A stretch of DNA of 61,422 nucleotides, counting the filler, from Vannella sp. (lineage: Eukaryota): assembly GCA_023345925.1 (NCBI GenBank). It is 4 parts of 4 records of this genome, joined end to end, with 100 filler letters (N's around TTAATTAATTAA, not from the genome) between each part and the next. Parts side by side here need not be neighbours in the genome. Positions count along the whole stretch, not along the records: positions 1 to 21,000 come from JAJQQN010000923.1; 3 more parts are not named here. One strand, 5' to 3'. Under the pieces are notes generated by a model that was not told the DNA's origin, did no database searches, and saw nothing but the letters and a program-made list of their open reading frames with translations. Each line of letters starts with the position of its first letter. Position 1 is the stretch's first letter. Shown here in pieces: positions 2,288-51,721 of the stretch. The position numbers were made by a program, and so were the translations under genes.

Positions 2288-5200
2288 CTAAAGGGGTTTA
2301 CCAGAGCAGCCCCTTCTTCTTCCCCTCGGCCTCTCGAGCAAGGAGTTCATTCTGAGTCAATTGAGTACGCTGAAGGAGATTTGCCATCTGAGACTCACAT
2401 TGAGAATGACCAGAAGCTGGGAACGCACATTTCTCAGTCTCTTTTCGAACTGTTCAGATCTCATCGAAACACGCTCAGAGTTAATCACTACATTCTTATG
2501 AATACGAGGCGAGGATGTGAAGGAGCACTGTTGCAACTCACGCTTCGTGAAGAAGAAATTCCTTGATTCCTCGTCATGTTCAAACACAACAGGTTCTTGC
2601 AAGAAAGGCCGGGAGCGTTCTTTCACTGATTCTTTGAAGCAAATGGACATTCTTCAACACGATTAGCAAAGGAATATCACCGCAAGGAGTTTCTTACTGA
2701 TAGAAGAAGCCCTCGCTTTCTATCTCTACAGCGTCTGCGGGCACCAACTCAATGGAGGAAGTAAGGGACTTTTGCCTTTGAGCACGGAGGTAGGCCTGGG
2801 AGGCTGCAAGGGCTCGGTTGGCTGTGGGCTGCTCCTCTTTCTTCCGCTTCCGTTGGGCCACCTTCTCAGGACACTTTCCCCGAGCGGGTTGAACAACCAC
2901 AAAAACGTGGTTAAAGTGAGAAGCAAATCCTGAAGGTGTGAAAGGGTCCGAGCCCTCATCTTGGAAGATAATGACGATAACGTCGTTTCCCACATGCCTC
3001 TTGCGGTGCAGCTGCTGCCGGTTCTCTGGGTCGTAAGGAAGGAGAGTGGAAGTGTGAAACATGATCTCAAACGACTCTCCAAACTGTGTGTAGACACTAT
3101 GAGTTCCTGTGGTGTCACTGGCAGTGTCTAAGCCACCCCGGAACCCTTCAAAGCCTTTCAAAGCAATTTTCTTTCCCAAAAAGCGGAGAAACTCCTCGTA
3201 GGCTTCTGAACCGTGCTCATTAGAGAACATATCGTCATCCAGTACTTGTCCAGACTTGCGATAGACCACTCCGAACTTGTACTGCTTTGATTCGAGATGT
3301 TTCCTTTCAAAGTCAATGAGAAGATCCTTCGCAGAAGGGTCTTTCAGCTGCTGAAGCACATAATCAACTATCATTGGGTGTTGCCGGAGGGCCCGAAGTC
3401 TATCTTTGGGAGTTTCACAGCAAACCAGAATGCGAATATCTTCATCTTTGGTTCGGAGGAGGGCCCGATAGCTATACTGGTTGTCCACGAATTGACCTTC
3501 CACTTCAATAGACACAATAATGATCGAGGATTGGTCCTCGCTTGCCCCTGCGTAGTTCTCATGAGTGATGAGTGCCAGAAGGTTGGCGTAATAAGCCACG
3601 CCTCGCTCTAGGTATTGGATGAAAGACGGGTTTGTGTCTGTTGCCAGTTCTCCTTCCTGGAGCTGAGAGATGGGCGATTCAATGTTAAAGCCAGGCGTGT
3701 TGTGGATTAGTGGTGAATTCTCCATACTTGCCAGCCTGACAGATGTCCGCTGTGTTTCTAACCAGTCCTTCTGAGATCCAGTGCCACGCTGAAGAGAGAG
3801 CCCACACATCTCTTTGATAGAAACTCCGCTACTGAGGGCTTTGACGACAGCGGCAGCGGTCGGGCGCTGCGAAGGCTCAAGATTGGTACACACTTGGAAC
3901 ATATCAATGAGATGCTGGTACTTTGTGGGGTCTATTACTCCTCTGCAGGCGCTAACGGACATACTTCGGCCCCGTTCCCGTTCTCCTCGTAAGTTGGAAG
4001 GGAGTTCTGGTCTCTCATTTTTGTCATCTGAGCTAAGAGAAGAGTCCCCGTATGGTTCTTGCATCGTTAGCATCTGGAAGAGTATAATCCCTAAGCTCCA
4101 GATATCACCTGGTAGAGTGCCACGCTGCCGGTCCCCATTTCGTATCTCAGGAGCGAGATAGTTCGTACTTGAGAAGAACACTTCGTTCTCCTTGTTGACT
4201 TGCCATTGAGCATCTCTTTTGGCCATAAAGAAAGGTCCCAAAGCAAGATAAGGAGGCACTCCCTTCTCCTTCTCCTGTGTAATAACATAAACAAGCTGGG
4301 GATGCAGAGATCGGTGCACCACACCGGCCTCATGAAGACACTGAAGCCCCAAAGCCATGTCCAACGCGAATTGCGTTATTGTTTCTGGGTCCAGTACGCC
4401 GCTCTCACTTGCGTAGCTAGTTTGATTGAGGTACTCTGCCAAAGTAGAGCTTGGAAAGGAGACGAACATCTGGACCTGGTTCGACACTTTGCTAAGTTGA
4501 ATCACAGAAAGTACGTTTTGGTGAGAGACTTCGTCAATGAAGTGGAGACTGGAGAAGATAGCCTCCATGTCTTCTTCATCTTGACACTTGATATGGTGTA
4601 CGCAGCAGTACCAGGGGCCTGCCCGGGCGTAGTGGAACTGCTCGTTCATGCGCTCTTGAAGTTCTAACTCATTCGCAAGTTGCTTGTGGGCTCGGCGGCT
4701 GGACCTTCCTATGGTGCCCATTTGTATCGTACTGGAGCTCTTTTGGTTGCTGATTGGGCGACGCCCGGCTTGCTGGTGCTCAGACAGGATACGTTTGGCG
4801 TTGGAGAGGAGAGTACTGGTCTCGATCAGCTCCTTCTCGATGTCCTTGTAGCTTTCCAGAGACTTCTTGATCATGCTATCGTAAGATCTGTTCTCTGCAA
4901 CGAGTCAGAGCCTGTCAAACACGGGAAAGTTTACCTTGAAGGAGCTTAAGTATCTCAGGTATCGTCGTAAAGGACGTCAAGGGCTTTCCAGAGTTAGACA
5001 GAGCCTCTGGGTTGGCTCCTTGTCGAATGAGTAGCAGGATAGTGTCTGCTTGGGGACGTGCAGAGAGGGCGTAGTGCAAAGGAGTCTCCCCTCGACTGTA
5101 TCACACTGGTTCGTGAGTTGAGCAGCCCCAGCAGTCAAGAGAACGTACTTGTTGATAGCATTCACATTGCAGCGGTTGTCGTACAGGAAGCGGAGGGCCA

Positions 5201-6643: not shown

Positions 6644-8839
6644 TCAAACAAGCTTGGGAGTCTTGATTACCTCCAGTTTGCTTGGTGTCACCCTCAAACT
6701 TGCCTGCTGCCGTCCTCTTTTCCTTCCTCTTGTACGAGAACCAGGAGCTCTGGAGTCATACAAAGGAAACCATTTGAAGGAGTCTCCAAAGAACTCGGAG
6801 GTAGCTGTACCGTCGCAAATGATAATGGAGCCTTGGAAATGGAGGCTCTCGATGGCCTTCCGCACCTCGCAATCAACTTGGTTCCAACGCTTTGCATCTG
6901 ATTTGAGTTCGAAAAGAGCAAAGAATAGCAAAGTGACGTTCTCTTCCTTCACAAGTAGGGCGGAGATTTGATTTCCTGGCGCCGATTCTCCCTCTGGAAC
7001 GCTGAAGAGAATGCGCCGCATTCGCATGAGATTCTCCAATGCCACGGTGAAAGTAGCCGCTGAGAATGCCTCTGGTTTGGGTCCTTCTGTGAAACTGAAC
7101 TCATCTTGAATGAACAAGAGATGGTTCTCCTTGGACTCGTCGTCTTTGAAGATGAGGAGCTTCTCTCCCAACGACTGGCACTGAGAGTGGGCCACAATCA
7201 TCGTAGGCAATTCGAGAACACTTGGAAGCTCTACGATTTGGCTTCCTCTGATGAGGGCCCTCTTTGCCTCCCTAGAGGGTTCTTCAGCGAGGTCTTGTTC
7301 ATCAAAGTCTTCGGAGCAGTACGGAGCGCGGATAACATGTTGGACAGCGCTAAGAGAGATCACACCAGAGCAGGCGCCAAAGCAGACGCTTGCGGAAGGT
7401 AAGAGGGACCGAAGTGACTTGACTGGCATGAGAGGCAGACTCGCGCTCTCCGCAGAAGCCATTTGCATCTTCAAGAGCATGAATTGGGTTGTAACTTTCT
7501 CAAGGGAGGTTGTTTTTTCAACCAGAGCACAGCAAGTGGATGAGAATAGCTCAAGGATGCGTTTCGCAATGACTGAGTGTTCGCCTGTTTCGTTTCGAGT
7601 AGCCCATTCCTGAGTGCAGCCCAAAGAGATTCTTGGAACAAAAAGACAATATTCGTAGGGGTTAGCGGTGATGCTACTCAAACAAACCAAACTCTCGAGG
7701 AGATCTGAGACTTTGCACCCTCCAATCTCTTGATGCGGCGAAATCTTCTCACAAAAGATGGCTTTCGCCAACAGCTCCGGAAAGCACTCGTCCAGCCTGT
7801 CTCCGTTGCGTCTGATGATGAGCTGGAGTCTCTCTACAACAATGTCGCGGACTTGCTCCATTGAGACCGAAGTGGAGGTTTCGAAAGCTTCCAGAAGGCT
7901 TGTCAAAATGTGGCCAATCGAGTCCCAATGGCCTCCAGTCAATCCAATGGTGAATCGAAGAGCCTGATTCCAGTCTGGAATCTTTTGCGAGAGACTCTGG
8001 AACGGAGAAGAAGCCACGAGTGATGCGAATGCATCCTCAGGAACATCTGCCACCGACTTTACTGGGAACCAGCAGATTTGGCATGCAGACGACGTTGCTA
8101 ACATCAGAGCCACGTCGCTTGAGTAAATCGGACGAGGGTAAGAGAAGACGAAGAGTACACGTTCTGAAATCTTTCCTGACAGTCTGACGCCAAGCGTTGA
8201 TTCAATGACCTTGATTGCTCTATCACCATCGGAACCAGAAAGAGCCTCTAGGTTTGCATTCGCGGAGTCGTCAACAAGAACGAAGATCTTTCCTCCCGGG
8301 ACTTGGGAGCAAATGCTGTCGAAGAGCTTTTCAAGGCAGCAGTCGCGAAGAAACTCAGTTTCCATGAAGAAGGATCGAAGACGATGAAAGCTTTCCGGAG
8401 TGAAACGCTCATTCAACAAGAGTGCTTCAATGATCCTCACCACAAGGCCTTGTTGGGGAGTGATGTCTCCTTCATCTGGCTCAGTCATGCTGAAGGTGAC
8501 GGGAATCACCCAATCAGGACCACTGCTTTCCATTCCAGATGTGAAGTATTCCGCCATGTTCTGCAAAGTGGAGCTCTTGCCTCCTCCTGGGGGGCTATGA
8601 ATGATTCCGTAGGGCGCCCGATTTCTCCATGCGCATAGGGATTTTAGGTCAGCCTGGATAAGACGTGCGAGATCATTAAGCTCGATTATTCGGTCATACT
8701 GCTTTCGCATCAGCGCTCTGCCGGTCGGCTTCACTTGGGACCAATCACTCCGCAAACGGAATCCTCCTTGCTGGAGAATGCCTCTAATCCGCTCCATCAT
8801 ATCCTGCTTGCCAAGGAGGTGAACTTGAGAGTTTCTCAT
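6644..8839 (-). CDS. P-loop NTPase with putative C-terminal restriction-endonuclease-like domain (Crinkler/RHS-effector-like)
   Basis: 731-aa intronless ORF. Walker A SPPGGGKSS, Walker B IFVLVDD, helical motif LTGGHW, C-terminal LLIFKDD..LLFIQDEFS. Confidence 0.6.
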   Translation of the reverse strand: MRNSQVHLLGKQDMMERIRGILQQGGFRLRSDWSQVKPTGRALMRKQYDRIIELNDLARLIQADLKSLCAWRNRAPYGIIHSPPGGGKSSTLQNMAEYFTSGMESSGPDWVIPVTFSMTEPDEGDITPQQGLVVRIIEALLLNERFTPESFHRLRSFFMETEFLRDCCLEKLFDSICSQVPGGKIFVLVDDSANANLEALSGSDGDRAIKVIESTLGVRLSGKISERVLFVFSYPRPIYSSDVALMLATSSACQICWFPVKSVADVPEDAFASLVASSPFQSLSQKIPDWNQALRFTIGLTGGHWDSIGHILTSLLEAFETSTSVSMEQVRDIVVERLQLIIRRNGDRLDECFPELLAKAIFCEKISPHQEIGGCKVSDLLESLVCLSSITANPYEYCLFVPRISLGCTQEWATRNETGEHSVIAKRILELFSSTCCALVEKTTSLEKVTTQFMLLKMQMASAESASLPLMPVKSLRSLLPSASVCFGACSGVISLSAVQHVIRAPYCSEDFDEQDLAEEPSREAKRALIRGSQIVELPSVLELPTMIVAHSQCQSLGEKLLIFKDDESKENHLLFIQDEFSFTEGPKPEAFSAATFTVALENLMRMRRILFSVPEGESAPGNQISALLVKEENVTLLFFALFELKSDAKRWNQVDCEVRKAIESLHFQGSIIICDGTATSEFFGDSFKWFPLYDSRAPGSRTRGRKRGRQQASLRVTPSKLEVIKTPKLV

Positions 8840-11663: not shown

Positions 11664-11959
11664 ATCTTCAAACATTTCTATCATGCCACCCAATTATGCT
11701 GCATTAGGATGACCGTTCGGGTCTCCTTCCCTCCAAATACGAACCTTCTCATCCCATGTATCAGATAGATGTGCCCCCAGCGAGCTACATGCGCCTGGGG
11801 CAGAGAGAACAGAGGGGAAGAGATCTCGCGGTGCAACCGTCCGGACTGAACCTGAAGTCCGCTTGGGAGATGGGAATTCCTGTGGGGTTTGCGGGGTGTT
11901 GTAAGAAATATGGTAATAGTTTTATTGTGCCCTGGACGTTACCATTTGTTGTTGGACGG

Positions 11960-13027
11960 ATGGGGAACATCGCGGAGTGCGGCGCTGGTGGAGACAAGGA
12001 CGCGGCCCGGCGAAACAAACAGATAGAGAATATGTTGGCAAAAGAACGGCGCTCTCAAGAAGAGGAGGTGAAGTTACTTCTCCTTGGCACTGGAGGCAGT
12101 GGAAAGAGCACCATCGCCAAGCAGATGAAAATCATCCACCTCGCAGGCTTTTCGGACGAGGAAAAGAGCGTCTTTCGTGGTATAGTATATCAGAACGTCA
12201 TCAACGCCATTCAAATTCTCATCACTGAGTCTGAGAAGAAGGATACAACACCTGAAGACGGTGCAGCCCGCAACCTCATCATGGGTGTCGCCCTCACCAG
12301 CGACGCCCCTGTTGTTTACACAACAACAGAAGCAGAAGCCGTGGAATCTCTATGGAGAGACTCTGTTATTCGAGCCACTTTCGCTCGTTCTCGCGAGTTC
12401 CAACTCGATGACTCCGCCAAGTACTTTCTTGACAACTGCACCAAGTTTGCCTCTCCAGACTACAAACCTGATGAGATGGACATCCTCCGTGCTCGGCTTA
12501 AGACCACTGGTATCGTAGAGATCTTCTTTGTGGTCAACAAGAAGAACTTTATACTCGTGGACGTCGGCGGGCAACGTAACGAGAGGAAGAAGTGGATTCA
12601 CTGCTTTCAAGACGTCACATCTATTATCTTCTGTGTTGCAATGAACGAGTACGACATGCTACTGGAGGAGGACAACGTAACCAATCGTCTGCAAGAGTCT
12701 CTGAAAGTGTTCGACGAAGTGTTGAACGCACAGTTCTTTGTGAACACTCCCATGATCCTCTTCCTCAACAAGAAGGATCTCTTTGAGGAGAAGATTGTTT
12801 CCGTGGACATGAGCTGTTGCTTCCCCATGTATGATGGAGGGTTAAGTTACGACAAGGCCTCTGAATACCTTGCAAAGAAGTTCAAGGATAAGAACATGAA
12901 CAAACGCCGTGACGTCATCTCCCACTTTACCATGGCCACGGACACCACCAACGTCCGCAAAATCTTCCGCGATGTGGAGGCCATGATCATGAAAGAGATA
13001 GCACGCGATGCAGGTTTCGAACTCTAA
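11960..13027 (+). CDS. Heterotrimeric G protein alpha subunit
   Basis: MGNIAEC myristoylation-type start at 11960. Motifs KLLLLGTGGSGKST, RLKTTGI, DVGGQRNERKKW, NKKD and ATDT. Intronless. Confidence 0.97.
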   Translation: MGNIAECGAGGDKDAARRNKQIENMLAKERRSQEEEVKLLLLGTGGSGKSTIAKQMKIIHLAGFSDEEKSVFRGIVYQNVINAIQILITESEKKDTTPEDGAARNLIMGVALTSDAPVVYTTTEAEAVESLWRDSVIRATFARSREFQLDDSAKYFLDNCTKFASPDYKPDEMDILRARLKTTGIVEIFFVVNKKNFILVDVGGQRNERKKWIHCFQDVTSIIFCVAMNEYDMLLEEDNVTNRLQESLKVFDEVLNAQFFVNTPMILFLNKKDLFEEKIVSVDMSCCFPMYDGGLSYDKASEYLAKKFKDKNMNKRRDVISHFTMATDTTNVRKIFRDVEAMIMKEIARDAGFEL

Positions 13028-13152: not shown

Positions 13153-15437
13153 CTACTGAGGAGCGCCAGGAGGCTTAGGAGCTCCCTGCAGCTGCTTGGA
13201 CTTGAGTTCGCTCTTGATCATGCCCGTGTTGAGGCCGTGACCGACGGAAATGAAGCGGCGCAGTTTCTGAGCTTCAAAGTCCTCTTTGATTCTCTTTCCT
13301 GTGGCGCTCTCCATCATCATTCCCTGTCGCAAGGGTGAGCCAATCACCACCGTGAAGGACAAGGGGCACTTACCATGAGATTCTTTGGTTGCAAGCCTGA
13401 GCCGATCTCCACGTAGCGCCGAGGGTCATCTGCTACCTCACGACGGACATAGGACTGCTCTTCTATCTTGGCTTCCACTGGGAGAGTCTCAGGAGCCAGG
13501 GGAGACTCAGGAGCTAAGGGAGACTCGGGAGCCCTGGGGGGAGTCTCCGGGATCTCCACAATCTCGGGTACATCAGGGAAGCTTGAGTCAGCTCCTCCCA
13601 CTAGCTTGAGAAGGTCGTTGATTGTGGAGGTCTCTCGTTGAAGAGGAACCACTTTGGGAAGGTCCTCCTCTTCAGAAAACACATCCCCAGCTTCATCGTC
13701 ATCGTATGAGTCATCATAAGAGTCGTCCGTTTCATCGTCATCTCCTCGCCGACGAGAGCGCGCTTTCTCCTGCGATCCTCCATCCTTTGGGGTTGAGGCT
13801 TTCTCTGTGCTTGTTACCGTGACAGGTGCTTCCTGAGTGTGTGCCTTATGTGTTTCGGGAGTGGGAGTCCGTTGAATGTTCTCGTCCAACACGACCTCCT
13901 CAGTGCCCACCTCGGTGGGATGTATCACGATCGAAGGGATCGTCTTGAGCTTCCTCGGTGCGACCCGTTCTGTTATAGTAGCGCTCGGCGTGTCTCTGTC
14001 AGTGCCCTTTCCACTTATCTCTGCGTCCTCTTGCAGCTGTTTCTCCTCGCCTGTGTGTAAGGCAGGTGGAGAGAGCTCCCTTTCCTTTTGGCTTTCGATC
14101 ACTGGTACCTGTTCATCAAGTCCAGAGTCCGATTGTAACGGTGGTGACACCTCCGCGTGTGACAAGACCAAGTTATCGTCCGCATCAACTCCACGTTCGG
14201 GCACTTTAGCGTCTGTCGAGTCCAGGCTACCATCAAGAACTTCCTTTCTATAACCTTGATCTGAGATGTCTCTCTCCCCTGGCCCTGGACTAGATAGTGG
14301 AGTTGCAGTGTCTGACCTATCAGGGGACTGAGCACCGTTGGGTACTGCTGAGTGCTCGACAATGGTAGAGCCAGGAGGTGTGGGCTTCTCTAATGAGCGC
14401 TTAGAACGCTTCTTGACTGACCTGGTTCGTTGGCGAGACTTCTCGGGCTTCCTGTCCGACTTGGTCCGGGTCACCTTCGGTGCGGGCGAACCTTCTGAGG
14501 GGTCTGAGTTTGTGGGCTCCGTCAGATCCTTCGGTGAGAGGGGCTCTTGGTCTGTGGTGGAGGTCTTCTTGCCCTTAGGGCGTGTTTTCCTTCTCAGCCT
14601 CTCGATAAGAGAGATCTTCTCACTTGCCTCTGGAGCTGAGACAGGAGATGAAGGAGATGACTTTGGGGTTGAGCTTGGTACAGCTATAACAGCTCGGGTC
14701 GCTTGGTAACGAATGGGACCCTCTGGGCTGTCGTTTGTGTGCCCAATCACTTCCTCAGCAGGGCTTTCATCCTCCATGATCGCACCAGAGCTATTGGACT
14801 CCACAGAGAGCTCCATATCTGACAGGTCTGGTAGCACATCGTCGATACGGAGTGGTTTTGGAGGTCCTGGGGAATCAAGGAGGTCTGTGGAGGACATTAG
14901 TGAGTCTGCCATATCAAAGGAGCGCTGCGCCCTTCTTCGTTGTGTTTCAGGAGAGCTCTCTGGCTCTGATAGAGGCAGCTCTCGTTCTTCTGCCTCTGGA
15001 GGGAGAGGATTAGCGCTGACGTTATTATTCCGTTGTTCTGAAGGCTGCTCGCTCTGTGAGTCACTGGGATTGATGCCATGGCTTGAGTTGTATCCGCTAG
15101 CTACTGCTGATACCTTTGATTTGGTTGATGACGCATCAGAGCCCTTCCTTGGCTTGCGGGTTCCCCTCGACTTGGTCCTCTGCCCAGTGGGAGACTTGAC
15201 CGTCTTCTTCTTTGCATCAGTAAGGAGCTCAATCAGTTCTTCTTTGGTAAGAGAGGACAACTGCTCCCTTGAAAGGTCCTTGAATGATAGGTCACGGGTG
15301 GGTCCCCGACCTTCTCCAAAGCTCTCCTGCCTTTGGACCAAGGTCGATGAGCCCTCCGCCTTGTTAAAGTAGTTCTGCAGAGTCATTTGCGAGTGGGCGA
15401 GCTCATCCTCCTCCTCGAAGCTCTCCGAGGACGCCAT
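13153..15437 (-). CDS. Hypothetical largely disordered S/E/P-rich protein, 2 exons
   Basis: Long ORF 13344-15704 with likely ATG at 15437. Intron 13324-13373 joins it in frame to ORF 13153-13362. Confidence 0.7.
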
Positions 15438-16002
15438 CCCCACCAGACTCTGAAAGCGGGCCTCTCCAAAACTGCTCTCATCCACGACGATGAATGGTTT
15501 AAACCCACAAGTTGCAAATATCTTCTGCTTGATGATGGTTTCGCTTGGTCGACGAGATAATTCATAGCGAAGCCCTCTGCGAGTTTCCAAGGCAAGGATG
15601 CTTATTCTCCAAGTGAAGAGACATACAATGGTTGTCTTCGATCCCATTGACCTCCTCTTCATGGCACTTCGCTTGCCCTCCTGCGAAAGTGATCTCCCCA
15701 TCACCTAGAGATCACAAAATCCACCTTAAACCCCACCCCCTTCTCTGGCTGAGCACGAAAGACTGAAGGAACTGTAACGACAGGGCTTTTGTGACAACGA
15801 GGACCGTTACAGTTCCTTCAGTCTTCACTAGAGAGGTAACTTGGATACTCAGGATCGGCGGGACACGGCGCCGGGGGAAGATTTGGGAAGAGAGCTTGGT
15901 AATGGTAACTTGGATGTGGTTTGTTGAACACCAAAAGGGCGTTGAGAATCACAAAGTGGGAGGGAAGACATTCGGGCGCGAGAATATGGTCCCCACACAA
16001 CG

Positions 16003-16234: not shown

Positions 16235-16984
16235 TTATTTGGACCGGAAGAGACCCTCGATACTTTGGTAAGAGCCCTTGTGCACCTTCTTGTAGTAAAC
16301 TGCGCCCGCTACTCCGGCTGCAATGAGAATGGAGACCACAATCAGACAGAAGAACACTCCAATGATGATCCAGTTGATGCTGTACTGAGATCGGGGAGCT
16401 CCTTCGAGAGTGCAAGAGGATCCGATTTCGCTGTGGGTGTTGCGAATGCTTCCGTCGATGGTGACAGCGGAATGGCCGTTGAAGCGGATGACCACTTCGT
16501 CAGATTTGGTTTCTACGATGCAGTCCACAGCCAAGAAGTTCTTGTTTTTGGCTCCCGTCAAAGCAGAATTGAATGTGAGCTGCGACGCGTAGAAGTCACT
16601 TGGGCCTCGAACGAGAATGTTGGTTCCAGCTCCACCAGAGAAGCTGCATCCCTCCAAAGAGGCATTCGCCACTTTGTTGTCGAAAAGGATGTCTGAAGGA
16701 CCCATTGTCCTGGAATTGGGACTGCTGCATCTTGAAGAATTGAACATTATTAGCATAAATGGCTCCCCCCCTTAGTTGCTGAGTTACCTATAAACTGGCA
16801 GTTCCACATGAGAACTTCTTTGCAATCGAAAGCTGCCACGGCGCCAGCGGTTGTTGGGGAGTTCTTGGTGAAGTTGGAATAGCTGACTTTGACAGTGTCG
16901 ATGCCACGGAAGTGGAGAGGAGGGAGATCAGACTTTAAGCTGAGAGATACCGAGTCAAGAAGATACAGCAACGAGATAATCCAT
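16235..16984 (-). pseudogene. Type I membrane protein with pectin-lyase/POMP-like beta-helix repeats, frameshifted (pseudogene or sequencing error)
   Basis: FxxN motifs (SNFTKN, CQFIGNSATKGG). GGAIY is restored by removing one G from a G7 run near 16765-16771, with a second +1 G near 16702. C-terminal TM segment WIIIGVFFCLIVVSILIAAGVAGAVYYKK. Confidence 0.55.
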
Positions 16985-17238
16985 GAGCCTGGGCGACTGA
17001 TCACGTATTGGACGCAGAAAGTTGAAAACCTAAAAACATATAAAAATCCGATTCCATCCACTCAGCATCGATTTTGGACCCTTTTCGAAGGCCCTGCTTC
17101 CGCGGGTGGTCGCTGGCCTCTTGGATTTTTTCAACCCCGGAATCCTTAGGGCTTTTTAAAACTTTAGAGTCAAACCATCCCTGATTGGGAGGGAATTGAA
17201 TTTAACTTCCCAAGTTTTTTTGGCACTTTCCCTTCAGC

Positions 17239-20200
17239 ATGGCGCTTATGCGGCTTTGTCTCTTTGCTTTCCTCTTCTTCTTCTCCCAAGTTGAGGCTGG
17301 ATGTCCTGTTCAGTCGTACAATGGTACGTCGTATGACTTGAACCCTTTGCATCGCACTTCATCGTAAGAAACCTTCCCATTTCCGTTCACGGCAGTTCTG
17401 ACCATTCATTGCAGGAAAGGGGACTGGACTCTTAGTTCAGGTACCACTTACTACTTGAACTTCTGTGGCTCTACAGCTATCAAGTGTAGCTATCCATCGC
17501 AAGCCCTGTGCGAGTACGATGGTGTCCTGCCGAGTCGCTCCTGGTCTCTTGCCAATTACCCATCTGCCACCTATCAGCAGTATAGGAGCGGTTCTGAGTA
17601 CGGTATACAGATCAAGTACTCCTCTCAGGAGTACTGTTCCCGTACTGCGCCTCTGGTCACTTACGTCAACGTCATTTGTGACCAAAGTGGCTCTGATGGT
17701 TTTTTCACGAATGTTGTCACCAATGAAAAGGCTTGCACTGTTACTGCACGGTCAGTACCTCGATAGTGCGATGACGAGAACTGACAAAGAAGCCTTTAGC
17801 TTTCTGAGCATCCACGGTTGTGGCAAGCCAATCCTTCCCTCAACTACCCGAAGCCCCAGTAGATCACCAGCTTCTTCAGCATCTCAGCTCCCATCCAATC
17901 AGCCGAAACCCCCCGCTTCAAAGTTCCCACTGCTGAAGGGTGCCGAGCATCTCGGGTATGGCTTCAACATGTTTGCAAGCAATACCGTGAGCCAGTTTGT
18001 TGGCGCCCCATTGACCACACCGATCATCACTGGCTTCAAGTACTCTCAAAACAAGAGCTGGGTGACTTCCGAAGGGACCTGGAGCGTGCCAGACCAAGTT
18101 ACTGTCTTCAGTGGGACTCCTTCTGGGGCACAATCATTCTCCTACCAGAAGGTAGCTCGCTACTTTGATCAAGTGGCTGCAAGCTATGGACTCTCCGTAG
18201 ACTACGTGTGGCACCACATCCCAATCGGAGTGAGCGGCTTTTTCAGTAACATCGACCAGGCCCTCAGGAAATCTGGAGGAACCTTCACCTTTACCAAAGA
18301 AGAGATTCCCCTTTACTCACTCCGCACCATACCTGACCAGTCCCTTGAGAGCGCATTTGTAGCTGCAGTTCAAGATCTGACTGGAAATCCCTCTGATGCA
18401 AAGTGCCAGGCCTTTGTAGAGAAGTATGGAACCCACGTCCAAGTGGGACTCGAAATGGGTGGACTTCTTTGGATTGGAGGTGCAGTTGCTTCCCAAAGCA
18501 TGGTGAGACAGTCCAGCACAACAGTTGGCGTCAGCGGACATGTGGCTATGATCAGTTTAAAGCTTGATACTACCTTGAACCCGTATTCTGGGTTGAACCG
18601 CAATGTCCAGCCCGCGTGGGAATCTGATTTGAAGTCGGTGCGAGTCGGAGGTGACACTTCAATAAGGCAGCAAACCGGCTGGTACAAGCTCTGGGTTGAA
18701 TCCATTACCGGAAATCCCTCCAGGATTGGTTATCGTCTCGAATCAATCACCGAATACGTTTCTCAGGTGTCCACGAGCGCAGCCAAACGGCTATCTGATT
18801 ACATTGCGAAGAAGCTGTCTAACACACCTGATTCTAGTTATTCTGCTCCGGAATCGATGATTCATTTGAGCAGTGGACCAAGTACAAATGCTGGTAGCGG
18901 TCTGCTGAAAGGATTATCGGTTTGGTCAGATGATGACGATGATTTTTATCACAACCTTTGGTTTACTTGGGATTCTGATATTAAGGATGCGCCGATAACT
19001 TACTCCAAGCCATTAATGATCAGCTGGGCTCAGAGAAACACCTTTGGCAGCGCACCAAGAACTACAAATAATGTTGCAGAAGATCTACTGGCTACTCACC
19101 CTTTGCGGACTCTCTCTCTAATACAAAACTACGGGCAATGCGGAGGATATGCTTGCCTGCCAGGTCTTGAAACTTTGGGAAATGGATTTGATATCGTCAC
19201 CGGGGCCCTTTTGCTGCCAGCCTTCAATTGGACATATAATAACCACCAACTGTACACCAATCCCACTACGAAGAAGACTTACACTTTTCCAGATCAAGTT
19301 CACTTGAATCCAGACTCAAGCTCTTCCACCAGGACCTCAGTTTACAAGTCATTCGAAGAGTACTGCCGAAACGCAACGTACAATAGTGCCTCTGGGTGGA
19401 ATCTCCCCATCATCTCCTGGGGAAGCGAGACCCAAGCTATTGAAACGGCTTTTACCAAAGCACAATCGGTGCTGGCAGTGGCTTCCCAGCAGTACATCGC
19501 CTATGCGCTGAGAGTGCAATCACCCCTTCCATCTCCTGATCTGGTCAAAGCGTTTTCCAAGTTGCCAACCTCGTATGACTTCCAGATGTACCTCAAATTC
19601 ATCAAAAGATGGGGTACCCATGTGATCTCTGGTGCCAACTATGGAGGGAAAGCTCAGATGTACTCCATGCTCGATCAAAAGTACTACACCTCCAACAGTG
19701 AACAAGCCGTTGAAAGTGCATTGGGCGTTCAGTTCAAAAACTGGAAACTTGGCGTGCAATGGGGAACAGACAGTTCTTCTTCAAGCTATGAATTCAGTTC
19801 CGCCAGTTTCCAATGGATGAGCTTCTCTGGGGGCGACTCTCCATTAGCAATGACGAACTCATGGGACCAGTGGATCACATCCACAAAGTATGCTCCCGCT
19901 CAGGTCGCTCGTATTCTCTCTCCTATTTGGGAGCTTTTCACTGGGGTTCAGTCCAGTAATCTTGCAAAAGCCGTGAATCAATATTACCGAGAGTCTGATG
20001 AGAATTTGACCAAGCTACCTCCCGTTGCCATGTCCATGCAACTCGGATTGGACTTCTACTCAAACTCTGGCACCAGCATGTACGCTGATTCTGGGTCCAC
20101 CACTGCATGGAACCATAATGACGGGTTGGCTTCTGAGACAACTTACCTCACCGCCGGTGTGGAAAAAGCAGATGCCATTTGGAAGCTCCCAAAGGGAGCA

Positions 20201-20401
20201 ATGAATCCTGGGGTCATTCGGCCAGGAAACTGTCAGACCAGAGAAAACCCTGATCCTAGTGACCCAGAGCAGTTGTTCTGTCCCACTGATACGTGGTTTT
20301 ACAGCTTAGCTCGCCAACGGTGCGACGCAAAAGGAGGAGAAGGAGCTCCTAAAGACTGTTTCTCTGCCAAGAGCTACCAATGCTGCCAGCTTCTCTTCTA
20401 A
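17239..20401 (+). CDS. Secreted MRH-like domain + two tandem MACPF/perforin domains + Cys-rich C-terminus (about 1020 aa, 3 exons)
   Basis: Signal peptide MALMRLCLFAFLFFFSQVEA. Introns 17364-17414 and 17751-17799 keep frame. MRH-like YDLNPL..YYLNFC..C..SIHGC. MACPF signatures YGTHVQVGLEMGG (18425-18463) and WGTHVISGANYGG (19610-19648). Confidence 0.85.
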
Positions 20402-21000
20402 AAGATCATTCAAACTACTAAACTTGGGTCATGAATGGCTTTGAATGGTTCCCGTCTTGAGGGAAGAAGCTCCCTTCAGCCTCCATCGAGGGACTGCACA
20501 ATACGATAGTCCACGCTAAGGAAGTGGATCATTTGAGTTCCTCTGGAAAAGAGATTCAACCTTCAGAACCTGGAGAATTAGATAGAAGGCGGAATGATGA
20601 GGAACCCACTCATTCGGTTTCGTTTCAGCACTGATCGTTAAACGCCGTCGAGTGTGGGCGCAAACAGTGCGGTACCATGTCTTGAGGGATGGCTCAAACA
20701 GCCTCTTCATGTGGCCGGCATCTCAGAAATCAAAGGTCCAAGATTGTCCCCAGTCTCAGCAAGCTAATTCTTTCACACATGTTTACATCAAGAAAAACGA
20801 AGCGATTGAGAGATACAAGTTGACAAAAACGATAATTTGTTGTCCTCGGTTTGGACCAATCGGGAGCCAAATGGGAAGCAAGGATTAGTTCCTTTGAGAG
20901 GCTGCGGAAGGGCGCCATGAATTGCGTTCGAGGTGGGTGCAAAGAACCGGCCTCAATGGCACTCGGGATATGCACTAGGTGTACAAGTGGGCCGTATTGC

Positions 21001-21100
21001 NNNNNNNNNNNNNNNNNNNNNNNNNNNNNNNNNNNNNNNNNNNNTTAATTAATTAANNNNNNNNNNNNNNNNNNNNNNNNNNNNNNNNNNNNNNNNNNNN
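21001..21100. other. Artificial contig-joining linker N44-TTAATTAATTAA-N44
   Basis: 100-nt spacer with stops in all six frames; identical structure at 38793 and 48032. Confidence 0.97.
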
Positions 21101-38792: not shown

Positions 38793-38892
38793 NNNNNNNN
38801 NNNNNNNNNNNNNNNNNNNNNNNNNNNNNNNNNNNNTTAATTAATTAANNNNNNNNNNNNNNNNNNNNNNNNNNNNNNNNNNNNNNNNNNNN
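38793..38892. other. Artificial contig-joining linker
   Basis: N44-TTAATTAATTAA-N44. Confidence 0.97.
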
Positions 38893-45204: not shown

Positions 45205-48031
45205 CTAAAGATCCAATATTGCGATCAGATCCTCAAAAGTGGGAGTCGGGGGTTCAGAATCCGCCATAATAGGGGAATGGGAGAAGTTCCTTAACTCTGG
45301 GATGATCCGGGAAACCTCTCCCAGAACGGTTTGGAGGAAAGGAATCACAAACACTTTCCGTGGGATGGGAAGAAGGTCATCTGACACGCGCTGAGGTCGC
45401 TGCTCTTTGAGGAACTCGAGAAGCTTCTTCTCATTGAAGTCCTCTCTCAGAGTTCGAACTGAATTAGAAACTGGACCAAGGCTGGCAAACCCGCTTGACT
45501 TTCCGTTTTTGGTATAATTCGCCCAACACTTTCGCAGCGTTCCAGCATTCACTTTGCAATTGGAAGCAACAAAGTTCCCGCAGATAGGGATGTTCTGGTT
45601 GTGGGCTTGGCACGAAGATCGTCCTCCTCCCTGGCAAGAAAGAGCTTCAAAAAGCTCCCGGGAAGCTGCTTCGCGAGCGTGTTCGGGGCGCAATAGAGGG
45701 GACACATAGGGTTTGAAACTGTCTTCGAAGATGAAGCCTCTTTCGGATAGCCCTTGGTTAGCTTTGCCCAAAGCAAAATTGCGATGCCTCCACAAGCGGT
45801 CGATTACAACATTCCCATCGAATTGCTTCGAAGTAAAGACTCTCAGTTCATCTTCAAGGAGCTCAGAAAGAGAGCTTTTGCTCTGGTCGAGTAAGAACTC
45901 TGTGGCGTATCCTTGGCTGCTGAGAATTTTAACTTTCTTGAGCTCTACCACCAGCTTTTTAGACAGCTCAAGACGATCCACGTAGTTTGAAGCGATAGCG
46001 TTCTCAGCAAAGCTGTGATAGTAAAACGCACTGTCCTCCATTTGGAAGAAAAGGAGTTTGTCGAGGTGTTGGGCGTTCCGGATGTCGTCCCAATGTGGGA
46101 TTCGCTCTTCTACATGCTTCGCTTGGTTAGTGATGGCAATGAGAAGAGGGAGCCAGTTCGGGAAAGGAGGATTCCCCGTGTTGTGGGAAAATGGCTGGAG
46201 TAACTCCATCAACCCCATAACGCATCCTCCCTTTTCAGTTTCCTGCAGAAATTGATCAAAGTTCTCTCCAACGTAATCATCCCATTGAGATTGAGCTGGG
46301 AATACCCTCAGTCCATTCTCAGCCTTGATATCTCCAAGTTTGAATTCCAAAGAGGCTCCATCTAGGCGGACCAATCTGAAGGTGGAGAGCGAATCACTTG
46401 GTAACAACACGATGTGAGTGATCCATTCCCTCTTTTTCTTCTTGTCCAATGCAACAATCCAATGATGTTGGGCCACCCATCTCTCGCTGCTAATCTGTTT
46501 CTCCAAAGTGAGGGTGATCTCATCGACAGGCGAGTTCTCCTTTCCAGAGAAGCAGATCCAATGGGACGGACACTCCGTCTTCAGCTCTTTCTTCAAATTC
46601 AAGAGCAAACGAGCCCTGCTTGCAGCGTCTCGCAGAGCGACCTGAAGGATGACCAAATCGTTTTCTTCAAACAACCGAGATTTGAAGAAAGTGCGTTGGA
46701 GAAGTCGAGTGGCCCATTGGTCGATGAGATTCCGGAATCGGATGGCGATAAAGTATGCCTGAGACATGCATCGGAAGAGCAGTTTGCTATCATTCAGGCC
46801 GTCTTTACTCGCCAATTTGAGCTGCCGGCATCGAAGTTGGGAGAGTTGCTCTTTGTTGAACTGCAATTGCTCTTCCGTATCCTCCCATCCACTGGCTGGT
46901 GTTTCGACACGAGTCTTGAGCTCAAGCCAGCTTGCGCGTGGCCTTCTCAAATACTCTTCTGTTTGACACTGAACTGAGTCTGTCTCGACTCGAAACTGTT
47001 TAGCTGGAACAAAGTCAGATATGTACTGTTCTGAAAGCTCAAGCGAAGTGATAGCGCCGTAATAGAACTCTTGGTGCATCTGCTCCTCCATAAGGTCCAA
47101 CATTGAACTTCCAATCAGTCGGATGGGCTCAAGTTCGAACGAGAGAAGAGACAGCTTTGTTGCTTGACGATAACACTCCGCAGTCAGCCAACGGCACTGA
47201 GAAAGAGAGGAACAAACAAACGCAAGGGCGCGCCATTCTTCGCATCGTCCACAAACTTGATCTCGAGTAGGAGGAGCTTACTATAAAGCTCCACAAACAA
47301 CCGTTCTTGTTCTTCAAGAACCGAATAGTCAAATGAGAAAGATTCAAGGACTGAATCGGAGTTCTCCGCTTGAATAGGACAAGAAAGATCCTGGAGGAGT
47401 CGTTCGACCGAGTTGGGACCGCTTCCAAGAGACTCTTCGAACAGCATTTCGAGGTTTCGTGAGAAGTCCGGCTTCCATTTGGTATCTTCCGAAGACAATC
47501 GACTGATTCGGATGGTTAAGAAAGCTTCCACTTTCACTTTCATTTCCTCAATGAACAGTGGGCTCCGCCAGAATTGTTCGGCCACTTGATCTCGCAACAC
47601 TCTGATTTCCGCAGAGTCATCCGGTTGCCCAACCGATTCCTGCAAGTACCGAATGATCTTATCAGTGATGCGTTTCCTGTCCACTTCACTCTTCCATTGG
47701 TCTCGGATTATCCTGCTGGGAATGGTAAATGAACGCGATCCACAGTTCTTGCGCACAAAAATGTGAAGAGGTGGCTTCAACAACATGTAGCTCAGTAGCT
47801 TTGAGACGTTGCGAAGACGGCTTTTGTCTTCTTTTGTCATTCCGTTTCGCTTGGCAAAGAGAAAGAAGGACCAGTTCGTCAATTGCGGCATGGCTTCGCT
47901 GTAGTCGATTAGAATACTCACTTCTCTCTCGTCCACCCATCCCGAGTCCCTTTTGATCTCGGATTGAACTGATTGTGGAACTAGCCGCACATGTTTGGAG
48001 TCGTTGGCAATAATGTTCAGCGCTTCCCACC
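45205..48031 (-). CDS. Large hypothetical protein (>900 aa), 5'-truncated by the contig end
   Basis: ORFs 47184-47990 and 45205-47103 lie on the same strand separated by an intron-sized gap; no recognised domain. Confidence 0.65.
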
Positions 48032-48131
48032 NNNNNNNNNNNNNNNNNNNNNNNNNNNNNNNNNNNNNNNNNNNNTTAATTAATTAANNNNNNNNNNNNN
48101 NNNNNNNNNNNNNNNNNNNNNNNNNNNNNNN
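48032..48131. other. Artificial contig-joining linker
   Basis: N44-TTAATTAATTAA-N44. Confidence 0.97.
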
Positions 48132-48200: not shown

Positions 48201-51200
48201 ATGTCCGTTCACGCGGCCATTCGGGAGGGGAACCTGGTGAAGCTGAAGAAGCTGTTGCAAGGCGAAGGAAAGGAGAATGAGGTGAATACGCAAGGTAAGA
48301 GCTGTCGTACGGGGTTGCACGGCTTTTGTGCTTTGTTGAGCTTCTCCCTTCTGACCGTCGTTTTCCCAGGTTTGGCTCCGATTCACGTGGCGGTAGTGGA
48401 AAACAAGATATTGATGATACGAGCTCTCCTGCGACGAGGAGCAGATGTGAATGCGCTTGACCCAGAAGGTCGCAACGCCATCTTCCTCGCGGCGGAGGTT
48501 GGACAAATCAAAACGCTGGAGTTGCTCCTCAAGAAGAAGCTGTAGGGAGCTCTTCTTCTTCTGCAAAGCCCTCTCTTATGTACAACAGGAAGCCAAACTG
48601 CCAGGATGCCGTGCCCGTGCTGGTGAAGCAACTCACCATCTTTCCAGAAGAACTGGCTGTTATCAAGCTTCTCCAAACATGCTCAGAGCTAGGAGCTGAC
48701 GTAAGAGACCCTCCACGCACCCTCTTGTAACGTACTGAGCGAAAGAACTCAGTTGTCCATCAAGGACAAGACCGGAAACACTCCTTTGCACTACGCTGCC
48801 TTGTACGGGGCCATTGAGATTGCAAGGTTCCTTTTGGAGAAGAAGGTGTCTTCTGGTCCTGTCAATCTGTGAGCTCGATCTGCTCCCGATCTCACGAGGG
48901 AGGCGAGAGGACCGTTTGCTCACTACGAAGGGGAAGGGAACGGGATACTCCGCTTCACATCGCCATTCGTGAAGGGCATGAGTCATTCGCTCAGCTGATC
49001 CTTTCAGGGACTTGCTCTGTCACCACACAAAACCTGGCGGGTGAAACAGCACTTTACTTGGCCAAGTCTTGCGGGATGGTTCCAGTGATTCCGTTGATTG
49101 AAGGTGGGTCTCTGAGACCACTCCAGGCTAACGAACTCAATTTTGAATAGCGCACAGCAAGAAAGCGGACAGGCGAGTGGATATGGCTGTCCTACCTTGC
49201 AAAGGGGCGCCGCTGAAACCCCGTTTTGGAGTAAGTCAGACTTCAAGTGAGGTTCTGGAAGCGATTAACGTGTTTGGATGGTCAGCATGTCACCCTAGTG
49301 TATCAAGATAACGTTTACTTGTTAGGAGGATGCAACTCTGCCATCTTCTCGGACGCAACGGAGTTCTACAAGGATATTGTCCGAATTCAATTGGGCTCAG
49401 GCATGGTCACCGAGCACCCTTGCAGTCTCCCCAAAACCCTTGCGGGACATTCAGCGTCACTTGTGGGACGTCAAGCCTTTGTCTCTGGTGGCATCTCTGC
49501 TGACAAGACTCGCTCAAAAGATATTTGGGTTCTTGACGTGGAGACGTTCGTGTGGGAGCAGCTGCAGACTATTCCTTACCAGATTCCTTTGGACATGCAC
49601 ACGACAACGGTGTCTTCGCGTATTGAAGTCTTCTTCTTGGCTGAGTTACGCGGCGAATTTGCCCACTCTTTCAACTATGATTTGGTCAAAGCAGAGTGGC
49701 GGAAGATTGATCACGAAGTTGGTGAACGACCACGTTATCGAATGGGATACACCTGCACCAGAGTGAGGAACTCTTTGTTCTTGTTTGGAGGACGGGCCCC
49801 CTCTGGAGAGCTCCTAGGAGACTTGTGGACGTATGATCTTCATTCTCACTCCTGGCGACAGCTCAACTGCCCTGGCACTTTGCCACCACCTCGTTGCTTC
49901 CACAGTGCAACTCTAATGGGCGATATTCTTTTCCTCATTGGGGGTCAAGCGGAAGCTCCACTAATTGAGAAATTCATTTATGCTCTGGACACCAAAGAAG
50001 AGGTTTGGTACCGATACTTTATGCCGATGGATGTTTGCCCTAGGAGCTTCTCTGGATCATTCTTTGCCACCCGCTCACGACAATATCTTTACATTCACGG
50101 TGGCCGGGAATCATCTGAACTTATTCAGGTTCAAATCTCTGATTCATGTGCTGATACGGCTCCAGTTTCTTTAGCACTTCCAGTGATCTCTGAAAATGCT
50201 TCTAGAAGGATGAGTGTCGCCTTGCCTCGTCCCAAAACTCAGCGGAAAGAGAGGAAAGTTACTTCTGTTGATTTGCTGGGCTCTCATTTCAGTACATCAC
50301 TCCGAAGTATTGAAAAGCACATGACTGTACTGTCTCCTAGAGAATCCTCTGCATTGGATCGGGTTCCAGTGTCCAATTTGATTCAGATGGCTGATGATCT
50401 GAATGAGGTTTCCTCTACACTCTCAGCAGATGTCCTCCATTACATTGCAATCCTCCAAACTTTTTTGGATCCAGAGAGACAGCCAAACGAAGCTGCGGGG
50501 GATATGGCAATGCTGCGTGATACGGGAGAAGAACTCACTTTCTTCTGCCAAAATCGTGCTCCTGTTTTGTCCGACCTGACAAAATCTATGAGAGCCTTTG
50601 AACTGAGACAAAAGGCTGTAAGATTCCAGGTTGCTCAATTTCCAATTCATCACCTCCAATCAATTGCCATACCCAGCGAGTACAAGCCCAATCCACTACC
50701 AAGTGATTTTGAAGGATGGGAGTCGAGCCTCAAGAAGCGCTTCTATCTCTGCGAGGAACTCATGAAAACAGAAATTCACTACGTCAACGACTTGGCGTTG
50801 ATGATTGGATTGTACTTGCGTCCGCTTCAGAATGAGTTTAGCGACCTTTTAACTTCATACGAATTGACTACTCTGTTTAAGAACACCGAGGCTCTGTTTT
50901 CTCTTAACAATCGCCTGCTGAGTCGTCTTCAAGAAGAGCAGAAACGACCTTATGAAGAGCAGGATGCGGGTGGCGTGTTTGTTGAGTTCCTGGAGGAGCT
51001 GAAAGTACAGTACGTATGTTACAGCGCAAATCAGGTCGCTGCCAATGATTTGTACCGCCAAGCCCGTTCCAGCAGTCCAGACTTTGAAAGCTTCGCTCAC
51101 TTGGTCACAACCCTCCCAGAAGGCAAAGGCCATACTATGGACAGCTACCTCATCAAGCCATTCCAAAGGATTACTCGTTACTCCCTCCTCCTGAAGGAGC

Positions 51201-51721
51201 TCAAGAGTACTACCCCCGAAAGCTGGGCAACATACAAGAACTTCGAGAAGGCGCACCTTGGGATTAGCCAAGTTGTCCAAAGCGCGGAAGACTCTAGGAC
51301 TCAATCAGATTCTCTGATGGTTGTAGTTGCCATTCAGACCCGCTTCATCACAACCGTGGAGGACACAGATATCATGGGACTGCACAAGCTTCACTATTCA
51401 CTACAGGGAGAGTTACGAGGTGCAGTTATCAAATCTGGAAAGAAATCTCGAAGAGTCAACTTTTCTTTATTCTTATTCCAAGAGAGACTCATTTTAGGAG
51501 AGCCCAGCAAGACTGGACTGCTCACAAAGGTGGCGTCAATAGCAATCGAGGACTTGAAGGTCTGCCCAAGTGCTCACAAGAATGGGCGTTATCCTTTCCT
51601 TATCGAGGATGTTTCAAACGCCTTCCAAGCAGAGATCCACGCGTCTTCTATTCAAGAGCGCGATGATTGGCTTGAGGCATTCCGCAATGTTCACCTCAAA
51701 CGCCTCACATCTTCCAAATAA
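48201..51721 (+). CDS. Ankyrin + Kelch + RhoGEF (DH) + PH protein, multi-exon
   Basis: ANK exons 48201-49100. Splicing gives the Kelch motif PRFG|HVTLVYQDNVYLLGG. DH motifs EELMKTEIHYVNDL and SYLIKPFQRITRYSLLLKEL. PH domain ends ERDDWLEAF. Confidence 0.88.

Follow-up and report, generated by a model that had tools for sequence, protein, structure and literature searches.

Introduction

Proteins of the MACPF (perforin-type) family normally form pores as rings in which all subunits are identical and have a single MACPF domain; alternatively, the products of separate genes assemble in order, as they do in the complement membrane attack complex (MAC). Among such products, C8 α/β (PDB entry ID, 3ojy) joins two different MACPF domains before membrane attack, as two non-covalently associated gene products with flanking TSP1, LDLRA, and EGF modules. 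MPEG1 (perforin-2; PDB entry IDs, 6sb3 and 6u2k), an ancient antibacterial MACPF protein of phagocytes, combines one MACPF domain with a P2 domain, a transmembrane anchor, and a cytosolic tail, and the bacterial proteins GNIP1Aa (6fbm), Mpf2Ba1 (8b6u/8b6v), and Plu-MACPF (2qp2) consist of one MACPF domain followed by a β-rich domain. Here we analyze a gene located at positions 17239–20401 of a 61,422-nucleotide stretch of DNA from Vannella sp. (assembly GCA_023345925.1; hereafter, the window). Unlike C8, its predicted product carries two different MACPF units (D1 and D2) in one polypeptide, preceded by a signal peptide and a head resembling a repeat of the cation-independent mannose-6-phosphate receptor (CI-MPR, or IGF2R) and followed by a Cys-rich tail. 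It is likely, with a probability that we put at roughly 0.55, that this three-exon gene encodes an exported pore-forming protein with a built-in hetero-pair of MACPF units.

Secreted chains with several MACPF domains have so far only been predicted, among the perforin-like proteins of piroplasms; three are predicted in each of Theileria annulata TA18285 and Babesia bovis BBOV_III000410, and the authors ask whether such chains let fewer monomers form a pore (PMC7522308). Compared by description only, these proteins differ from the present one in having an apicomplexan C-terminal β-rich region, and a mannose-6-phosphate-receptor homology (MRH) head is not mentioned in the passages of that paper that we consulted. 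According to excerpts of the sources, snail perivitellin-2 couples MACPF to a carbohydrate-binding-type module for targeting (10.1101/2019.12.23.880021; PMC12031178), and differs in its tachylectin fold, its two disulfide-linked chains, and its single MACPF domain. Among the extracts returned by literature phrase searches, those for tandem or double MACPF described no such chain, the match concerning duplicated MACPF genes in grasses, and those for "two MACPF domains" comprised only work on C8 and CD59 dealing with two separate proteins. In the extracts from a wider phrase search, PMC7522308 was the only one among the matches listed to mention multiple MACPF domains in one polypeptide, and a fusion was not found among the matches listed for MRH or CIMR terms combined with MACPF. 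The gene described here adds to these a MACPF protein in which a conserved tandem hetero-pair is combined with a CI-MPR-type head, from a sizeable family of environmental sequences.

Results

Gene model

A mechanical list of open reading frames (ORFs) gives a 978-residue frame at this locus (17465–20401, starting with GTG), in which a Pfam scan matched MACPF twice. The start of this ORF is wrong, because its first ~112 codons are exon 2 and intron 2 translated out of frame. Three exons (17239–17363, 17415–17750, and 17800–20401, stop included) join into one frame of 1,020 codons for a protein of 1,020 residues, in agreement with an earlier reading of the sequence alone (hereafter, the sequence-only reading), which had proposed a misplaced start, two short introns, and a protein of ~1020 residues. 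The ATG at 17239 is the first one after an in-frame TAA located 36 nucleotides upstream. Codon-usage log-odds, trained on nine Pfam-supported ORFs within the window, were +0.090, +0.093, and +0.089 for exons 1, 2, and 3, respectively, in the proposed frames, and −0.024 for the frame of the 978-residue ORF over 17465–17797.

The strongest support for the three-exon model comes from an intronless homolog, P0006, whose 1,021-residue ORF fills a 3,159-nucleotide environmental contig and contains a signal peptide, an MRH domain, a linker, D1, D2, and a tail. P0006 and the spliced protein are collinear (residues 29–939 and 27–931; 30% identity over 949 columns; E, 5e-113), with no gap at either splice junction and with all eight N-terminal Cys residues paired. 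The C-terminus and the stop codon were confirmed by P0001, a 247-residue fragment fully identical to residues 774–1020, since its independent 1,036-nucleotide contig ends alike. The sole match in an RNA library was a 234-nucleotide contig identical to 19708–19941 (run X1, a freshwater metatranscriptome), which is too short to bear on the introns or on whether the locus gives one transcript, and the uncovered remainder is uninformative. A tblastn search of the spliced protein against the window found no paralog. From these sequence comparisons, the three-exon model at 17239–20401 is confirmed as a real gene. Its features are as follows.

17239–17363 (+), exon 1: start codon, predicted signal peptide, and first MRH-like strand including Cys22
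17364–17414 (+), intron 1, 51 nucleotides, GTAAGA...TTGCAG: in-frame TAA at the 5' end; no gap versus P0006
17415–17750 (+), exon 2: MRH/CI-MPR-repeat-like core, residues 42–154, with Cys59, Cys66, Cys74, Cys116, Cys130, and Cys149
17751–17799 (+), intron 2, 49 nucleotides, GTCAGT...CTTTAG: after splicing, Cys149 to Cys161 span 12 residues, a spacing identical in P0006
17800–17923 (+), start of exon 3: last MRH strand, FLSIHGC (to residue 161), and Ser/Pro/Thr-rich linker, residues ~163–195
17918–18838 (+), MACPF unit D1, residues ~194–500: by Pfam PF01823 and VIA-align
18146–18280 (+), D1 TMH1, residues 270–314: helical cluster in the model
18488–18631 (+), D1 TMH2, residues 384–431: helical cluster in the model
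18839–19126 (+), post-D1 segment, residues ~501–596: small β region, acidic cluster, flexible linker, and C-x4-C loop
19127–20038 (+), MACPF unit D2, residues ~597–900: by Pfam PF01823 and VIA-align
19346–19465 (+), D2 TMH1, residues 670–709: helical cluster in the model
19676–19804 (+), D2 TMH2, residues 780–822: helical cluster in the model
20039–20401 (+), C-terminal β-rich domain with six Cys, residues 901–1020: nine predicted strands; TAA stop at 20399–20401

Two different MACPF units in one chain

When the two halves were scanned separately, each matched Pfam PF01823 well above its curated cut-off of 21.5 bits: D1 with 56.7 bits (E, 4.9e-15; residues 148–324 of the translated 17801–19090) and D2 with 78 bits (E, 1.5e-21). 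Both units have their own G-x3-LG-x-GF motif (residues 202–210 in D1 and 609–617 in D2), PDQV motif (250–253 and 651–654), and [YW]-G-T-H-x7-G-G sequence, the last of which reads YGTH-x7-GG, YGTHVQVGLEMGG, at 362–374 of D1 and WGTH-x7-GG, WGTHVISGANYGG, at 758–770 of D2. We take this sequence to be the MACPF signature, close to the MACPF pattern of PROSITE; its G-H...GG residues are invariant in both units of all eight aligned relatives. Two MACPF domains, each with its own set of motifs, had been claimed by the sequence-only reading, and translation of the spliced protein put every motif where that reading had it.

D1 and D2 share 22% identity over 354 residues (E, 4e-6), and in sequence matching D2 is the more orthodox MACPF unit. 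D2 alone directly matches C8 α, C7, and GNIP1Aa; D1 alone gave no match at E ≤ 10 in a phmmer search of the PDB, and is recognized only via Pfam, a two-unit profile, and structure. The two-unit profile, searched against the PDB, retrieved MPEG1 (5.3e-09, the best match), Mpf2Ba1, C8 α (2.2e-08), C9, C6, C7, perforin-1, the solved apicomplexan MACPF protein TgPLP1 as a distant match (0.0072), and C8 β; 23 of the 24 matches at E ≤ 1 were MACPF proteins, the remaining one being a chance-level GTPase (E, 0.99). As a lead, the 866-residue product of exon 3 fell near only generic bacterial MACPF clusters in the ESM Atlas (0.88).

The segment following D1 and the C-terminal tail have no Pfam match. 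The former contains an acidic cluster (W-S-D-D-D-D-D, residues ~528–536), which occurs as DD-DD(D/E) in five of the eight aligned proteins, often followed by Cys, and which may be a metal (Ca2+) site, then the flexible linker (residues 582–594), and a C-x4-C loop directly ahead of D2. The tail is Cys-rich, as had been proposed, with six Cys among the last 56 residues, and is kept in two further relatives, P0002 and P0003. Judged by eye, the Cys spacing of the tail, C-x15-C-x13-C-x11-C-x7-CC, is not that of an EGF-like domain, and this assignment was rejected.

A structure model was generated with AlphaFold2 for residues 155–1020 (residue 155 being number 1 of the model), using a 63-row alignment of relatives with a depth of ~25 over D1 and ~57 over D2. 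The mean per-residue confidence (pLDDT) was 84.6, and the predicted template modeling score (pTM) was 0.84. Each unit is modeled with two helical clusters flanking a central sheet. Confidence is low only in the Ser/Pro/Thr linker, a loop in the second helical cluster of D1, and the D1–D2 linker, with pLDDT below 50 at model positions 1–33, which are predicted to be disordered, and 428–440 (residues 582–594). Strands are found in the post-D1 segment (model positions 368–402), and nine of them form the C-terminal domain (747–865). The model also covers the Ser/Pro/Thr linker seen in the sequence-only reading, which we read at residues ~163–195.

A Foldseek search with the model gave 79 matches in the PDB at E ≤ 1e-3, those at the top being Mpf2Ba1, Plu-MACPF, GNIP1Aa, perforin, and MPEG1. 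With VIA-align, D2 was superposed on GNIP1Aa (PDB entry ID, 6fbm; Z-score, 18.1; 2.8 Å over 279 residues), TgPLP1 (17.4), Mpf2Ba1 (17.3), MPEG1 (16.3), Plu-MACPF (16.2), and C8 α (14.0). The three bacterial proteins are the best structural matches of D2 (root-mean-squared deviation, 2.8–3.5 Å over 279–298 residues), and their order of one MACPF domain and then a β-rich domain resembles that of each unit here; they differ in having a single MACPF domain per chain and no MRH head, and the identity is 18–19%. The β-rich domains of these bacterial proteins have a β-tripod or β-prism fold, and the alignments to them extend only to model positions 796–803, within the C-terminal β domain. D1 (model positions 40–346) was best matched by a Bacteroides MACPF protein (3kk7; Z-score, 11.9) and by pleurotolysin B (4ov8; 11.2). 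Thus, modeling of the monomer, which had been put forward as a check on the two-domain claim, came out MACPF-like for both units in confidence as well as in matches to solved structures, and both are confidently predicted to adopt the MACPF fold. The pTM obtained for the two-unit chain further implies that D1 and D2 would be held in a defined mutual arrangement.

Segments that are modeled as helices and have the periodicity of an amphipathic β-strand are a hallmark of the hairpin precursors in MACPF/CDC proteins. We calculated period-2 hydrophobicity from column means of the eight-protein alignment in 12-residue windows, for which the background mean was 0.53 and the 99th percentile 1.70. The global maximum was located in D1 TMH2 (2.03), followed by D2 TMH2 (1.78) and D1 TMH1 (1.71), so that three of the four segments modeled as helical clusters lie in the top 1%.

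A CI-MPR-type head and a predicted signal peptide

Repeats of the CI-MPR type have an eight-Cys framework, and most of the CI-MPR repeats are non-lectin. The head of the present protein (residues 21–162) also contains eight Cys residues (22, 59, 66, 74, 116, 130, 149, and 161). In a phmmer search of the PDB with exon 2 (111 residues), all four matches were to CI-MPR (best E, 4.1e-09; best stretch, domain 3). A two-sequence profile of exon 2 and the P0006 head improved this to 4.6e-17, with all 13 matches at E ≤ 1 being CI-MPR/IGF2R; profile positions 8–146 aligned with domain 3 (i-E, 1.6e-06) and 2–123 with domain 5 (i-E, 1.9e-05), and the alignments to both domains pair the head cysteines. 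The nearest named clusters of the head in the ESM Atlas belong to the CIMR, ATG27, and PRKCSH families, with CIMR at the top (0.96). The P0006 head matched Pfam CIMR (PF00878) with E of 6.2e-4 and 20.3 bits, under the cut-off of 22.5. Exon 2 alone, which excludes the first and last strands, gave no match at E ≤ 10 to the MRH/CI-MPR clan (taken as PF00878, PF07915, PF13015, and PF09451), and its single-sequence AlphaFold2 model (111 residues, likewise excluding these strands) had a pLDDT of 38.7, too low for use in recognizing the flattened β-barrel of such repeats. The Cys-containing N-terminal domain, noted before as MRH-like, is therefore homologous by sequence to the MRH/CI-MPR repeats, over a whole repeat of IGF2R domains 3 and 5 (6v02 and 1q25). 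IGF2R differs in being a 15-repeat sorting receptor, whereas a single repeat stands here on a predicted soluble pore-former.

The sugar-binding tetrad of CI-MPR domain 3, which we take to be Q348, R391, E416, and Y421 in agreement with the 1q25 chain numbering in the alignment, is replaced by E75, L122, E146, and V151 in the head, so that Q/R/E/Y reads E/L/E/V and one of the four residues is kept. In P0006, a reading by eye also finds one position kept, Q, which differs from that kept in the window protein. Partial retention of these residues had been anticipated in the sequence-only reading, but its description of the protein as lectin-tipped and glycan-targeted is not supported by this tetrad; because only one of the four residues is kept, canonical binding of mannose or mannose-6-phosphate by the head is unlikely, as judged from the alignment.

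Residues 1–20 (17239–17298), MALMRLCLFAFLFFFSQVEA, end in V-x-A and were read by eye as a signal peptide. They form the sole strongly hydrophobic 19-residue window in the protein, with no further segment resembling a membrane span, and thereby coincide with the signal-like segment seen earlier. The protein is accordingly predicted from its sequence to be exported and soluble, without a membrane anchor.

Relatives and ancestry of the pair

Word-indexed protein searches with the 866-residue product of exon 3 and with its second half found no relatives, two scans of metagenome contigs found none, and an earlier protein search with the two-unit profile retrieved P0001 alone, a fragment of the same protein. 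An exhaustive HMMER search with this profile yielded 913 representatives with E ≤ 1e-3, of which 199 had E ≤ 1e-10 and 23 had E ≤ 1e-30. Local hmmsearch on the best 150 of the 913 counted one unit in 95 proteins, many of which are fragments, two in 46, and three in nine, giving 55 multi-MACPF proteins. Tandem MACPF is thus not unique to this gene, and the rule of one MACPF domain per chain, from which the sequence-only reading had started, gives way among these relatives. All ten relatives that were looked up come from Logan, ENA, or JGI environmental assemblies.

Pfam was run on 45 of the 150, picked mostly for length or multi-unit content, and 37 of them showed two or three MACPF stretches. 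Three stretches each are present in P0028 (2,520 residues), P0045 (2,111 residues), and P0056 (1,146 residues), those of P0028 and P0045 being interleaved with several Kelch propellers. Kelch propellers were found in three of the 45 (P0028, P0045, and P0101), and P0052 (807 residues) has two MACPF stretches with an ML (lipid-recognition) domain at its end. A CIMR signal was detected in P0006 only. Identity to the window protein is 38% for P0002 and 36% for P0003, and both are collinear with it from D1 to the last residue; they begin inside or shortly before D1, as expected if ORF calling missed upstream exons separated by introns, which is the case at this locus.

The relationship between the units was examined with FastTree on 65 units, all from proteins in which two or more units are near-complete, and with a short IQ-TREE run covering 40 units of 20 proteins; both trees exclude every single-unit protein and any unit matching fewer than 230 profile positions. 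D1 of the window protein clusters with D1 of P0002, P0003, P0004, P0006, P0009, and P0012 (SH-aLRT, 99.8 in IQ-TREE), and its D2 with D2 of the same six proteins (98.9); the local support in FastTree is 95 for either group. Mapped on the FastTree topology, the D1 and D2 labels require 7–8 changes, versus 22 when shuffled. On these trees, D1 and D2 are distinct, co-inherited paralogs, whose old split has been kept in seven collinear proteins. This is the pattern expected if both units are needed and are not interchangeable.

Other genes in the window

At least four contigs are joined in the window by spacers of N44-TTAATTAATTAA-N44 (a six-frame stop linker) at 21001–21100, 38793–38892, and 48032–48131; neighborhood across the spacers is therefore artificial, and the contig of the MACPF gene ends at 21000. 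The window is eukaryotic, its long ORFs including a RapGAP–kinase fusion, G-alpha, a Kelch–RhoGEF–PH protein, a 15-repeat PPR protein, and an RCC1 protein. The following were noted.

2694–4874 (−): 726-residue ORF with a protein kinase (98–345) and a Rap/Ran-GAP domain (549–671) in a single frame
6644–8839 (−), 13344–15704 (−), and 45205–47103 (−): ORFs of 731, 786, and 632 residues, respectively, with no Pfam match at E ≤ 1e-3; that at 13344–15704 is rich in Ser, Pro, Glu, and Lys and looks disordered
11756–13027 (+): G-protein alpha subunit (Pfam G-alpha, 390.8 bits) with an N-terminal extension of ~85 residues, which may include an unrecognized intron or a wrong start
16235–17061 (−): upstream neighbor of the MACPF gene, two ORF pieces (173 and 103 residues) of a small protein, probably split by an intron; the product is Gly/Asn/Ser-rich, with repeats of β-helix-like appearance and one C-terminal hydrophobic span, IIIGVFFCLIVVSILIAAGVAGAVYY
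49247–51721 (+): 824-residue ORF with a Kelch propeller, RhoGEF, and a weak PH domain; Kelch also occurs in the MACPF relatives P0028, P0045, and P0101

Discussion

We infer a pore-forming protein that would operate as follows. The signal peptide would export the protein, and the C-terminal β domain and/or the MRH-like head would then bind to a target surface, the head probably in a non-canonical manner and not to mannose or mannose-6-phosphate as usual. The chains would oligomerize, each of them adding a D1 stave and a D2 stave to the ring, and a single chain would be the counterpart of the C8 α/β pair. Finally, the four helical clusters would refold as amphipathic β-hairpins that perforate the membrane of attackers, of prey, or of microbes that have been ingested. 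With both units modeled in a fixed arrangement and kept as distinct paralogs in seven collinear proteins, the covalently pre-dimerized perforin suggested earlier is plausible. A role in killing prey or ingested microbes, or in defense, is a guess, made because of the free-living protist lifestyle and with MPEG1 as the analog; MPEG1 is a plausible functional analog for a phagotrophic protist, although it is membrane-anchored and the window protein is predicted to be soluble. More tentatively, and with odds that we consider to be against it, the protein may be a single-chain heterodimeric perforin in the full sense, a one-gene equivalent of C8 α/β whose anciently diverged D1 and D2 have to lie next to each other, its ring alternating D1 and D2 staves and needing half the usual number of polypeptides, with a CI-MPR repeat from the sorting pathway retuned to a non-mannose ligand, as a member of a large multi-MACPF family of uncultured microbes, some of them fused to Kelch.

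Several points weigh against an exported pore-former with a targeting head. The introns are predicted, the only RNA match lying off the junctions, and the signal peptide was called by eye and from hydrophobicity. The head, with one tetrad residue kept both here and in P0006, may be inert, or may act as a module for protein binding or for sorting, and it is not universal in the group because P0012 has a signal peptide immediately ahead of D1. D2 TMH1 shows no notable β periodicity, its period-2 hydrophobicity being just 0.98. Non-lytic MACPF proteins with intact signatures exist (astrotactin, C6, and similar), and one of the non-lytic type, astrotactin-2, is among the structural matches (Z-score, 11.0). 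The last two points could be accommodated by a non-lytic MACPF scaffold for adhesion, signaling, development, or recognition (compare astrotactins, BRINPs, and Torso-like), the head of which binds protein or glycan while no pore is formed; the MACPF fold is kept by such non-pore proteins, and the Kelch and ML fusions among the relatives suggest varied binding roles. We nevertheless regard this as unlikely, since top-1% amphipathic-β periodicity, conserved across relatives, is found in three of the four helical clusters, the closest structures are those of proven pore-formers (GNIP1Aa, TgPLP1, Mpf2Ba1, MPEG1, and perforin), and the protein, soluble and lacking a membrane anchor, is predicted to be exported.

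The pore-former could also arise from a pro-protein that is cut in the D1–D2 linker after export into two separate MACPF subunits of a two-component system, which the sequence-only reading had offered as an alternative. The linker is indeed of low confidence and probably flexible at residues 582–594, and two-component MACPF systems are known (C8 α/β). However, residues 495–600 lack any dibasic or furin-like motif, nor does the eight-protein alignment show a conserved one; cleavage into two chains thus finds no support. The pTM implying a fixed arrangement of the units, and the tandem fusion kept in 55 of the best 150 relatives, also speak against it, leaving this route quite improbable. Still further down in probability, to the point of being very hard to sustain, is an artifact of the gene model, in which the MRH exons and the MACPF ORF are separate genes or two MACPF genes are read through. 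That the introns are predicted, with no RNA reads over the junctions, would permit it, but the frame is single and uninterrupted from D1 to the stop, P0006 holds the whole layout in one intronless ORF, P0002 and P0003 are collinear from D1 onward, and the splice junctions are gapless versus P0006 with codon usage favoring the proposed frames.

A single chain with two different co-inherited MACPF units provides a natural test of how neighbors recognize each other, whether a pore can consist of alternating staves, and how the ring size is set. If the fusion to the head is functional, the CI-MPR-type fold, used in intracellular sorting, would also serve to direct an attack protein to its target. 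Because the relatives are environmental sequences only, the family would represent an uncharted set of candidate predation and defense effectors of microbial eukaryotes.

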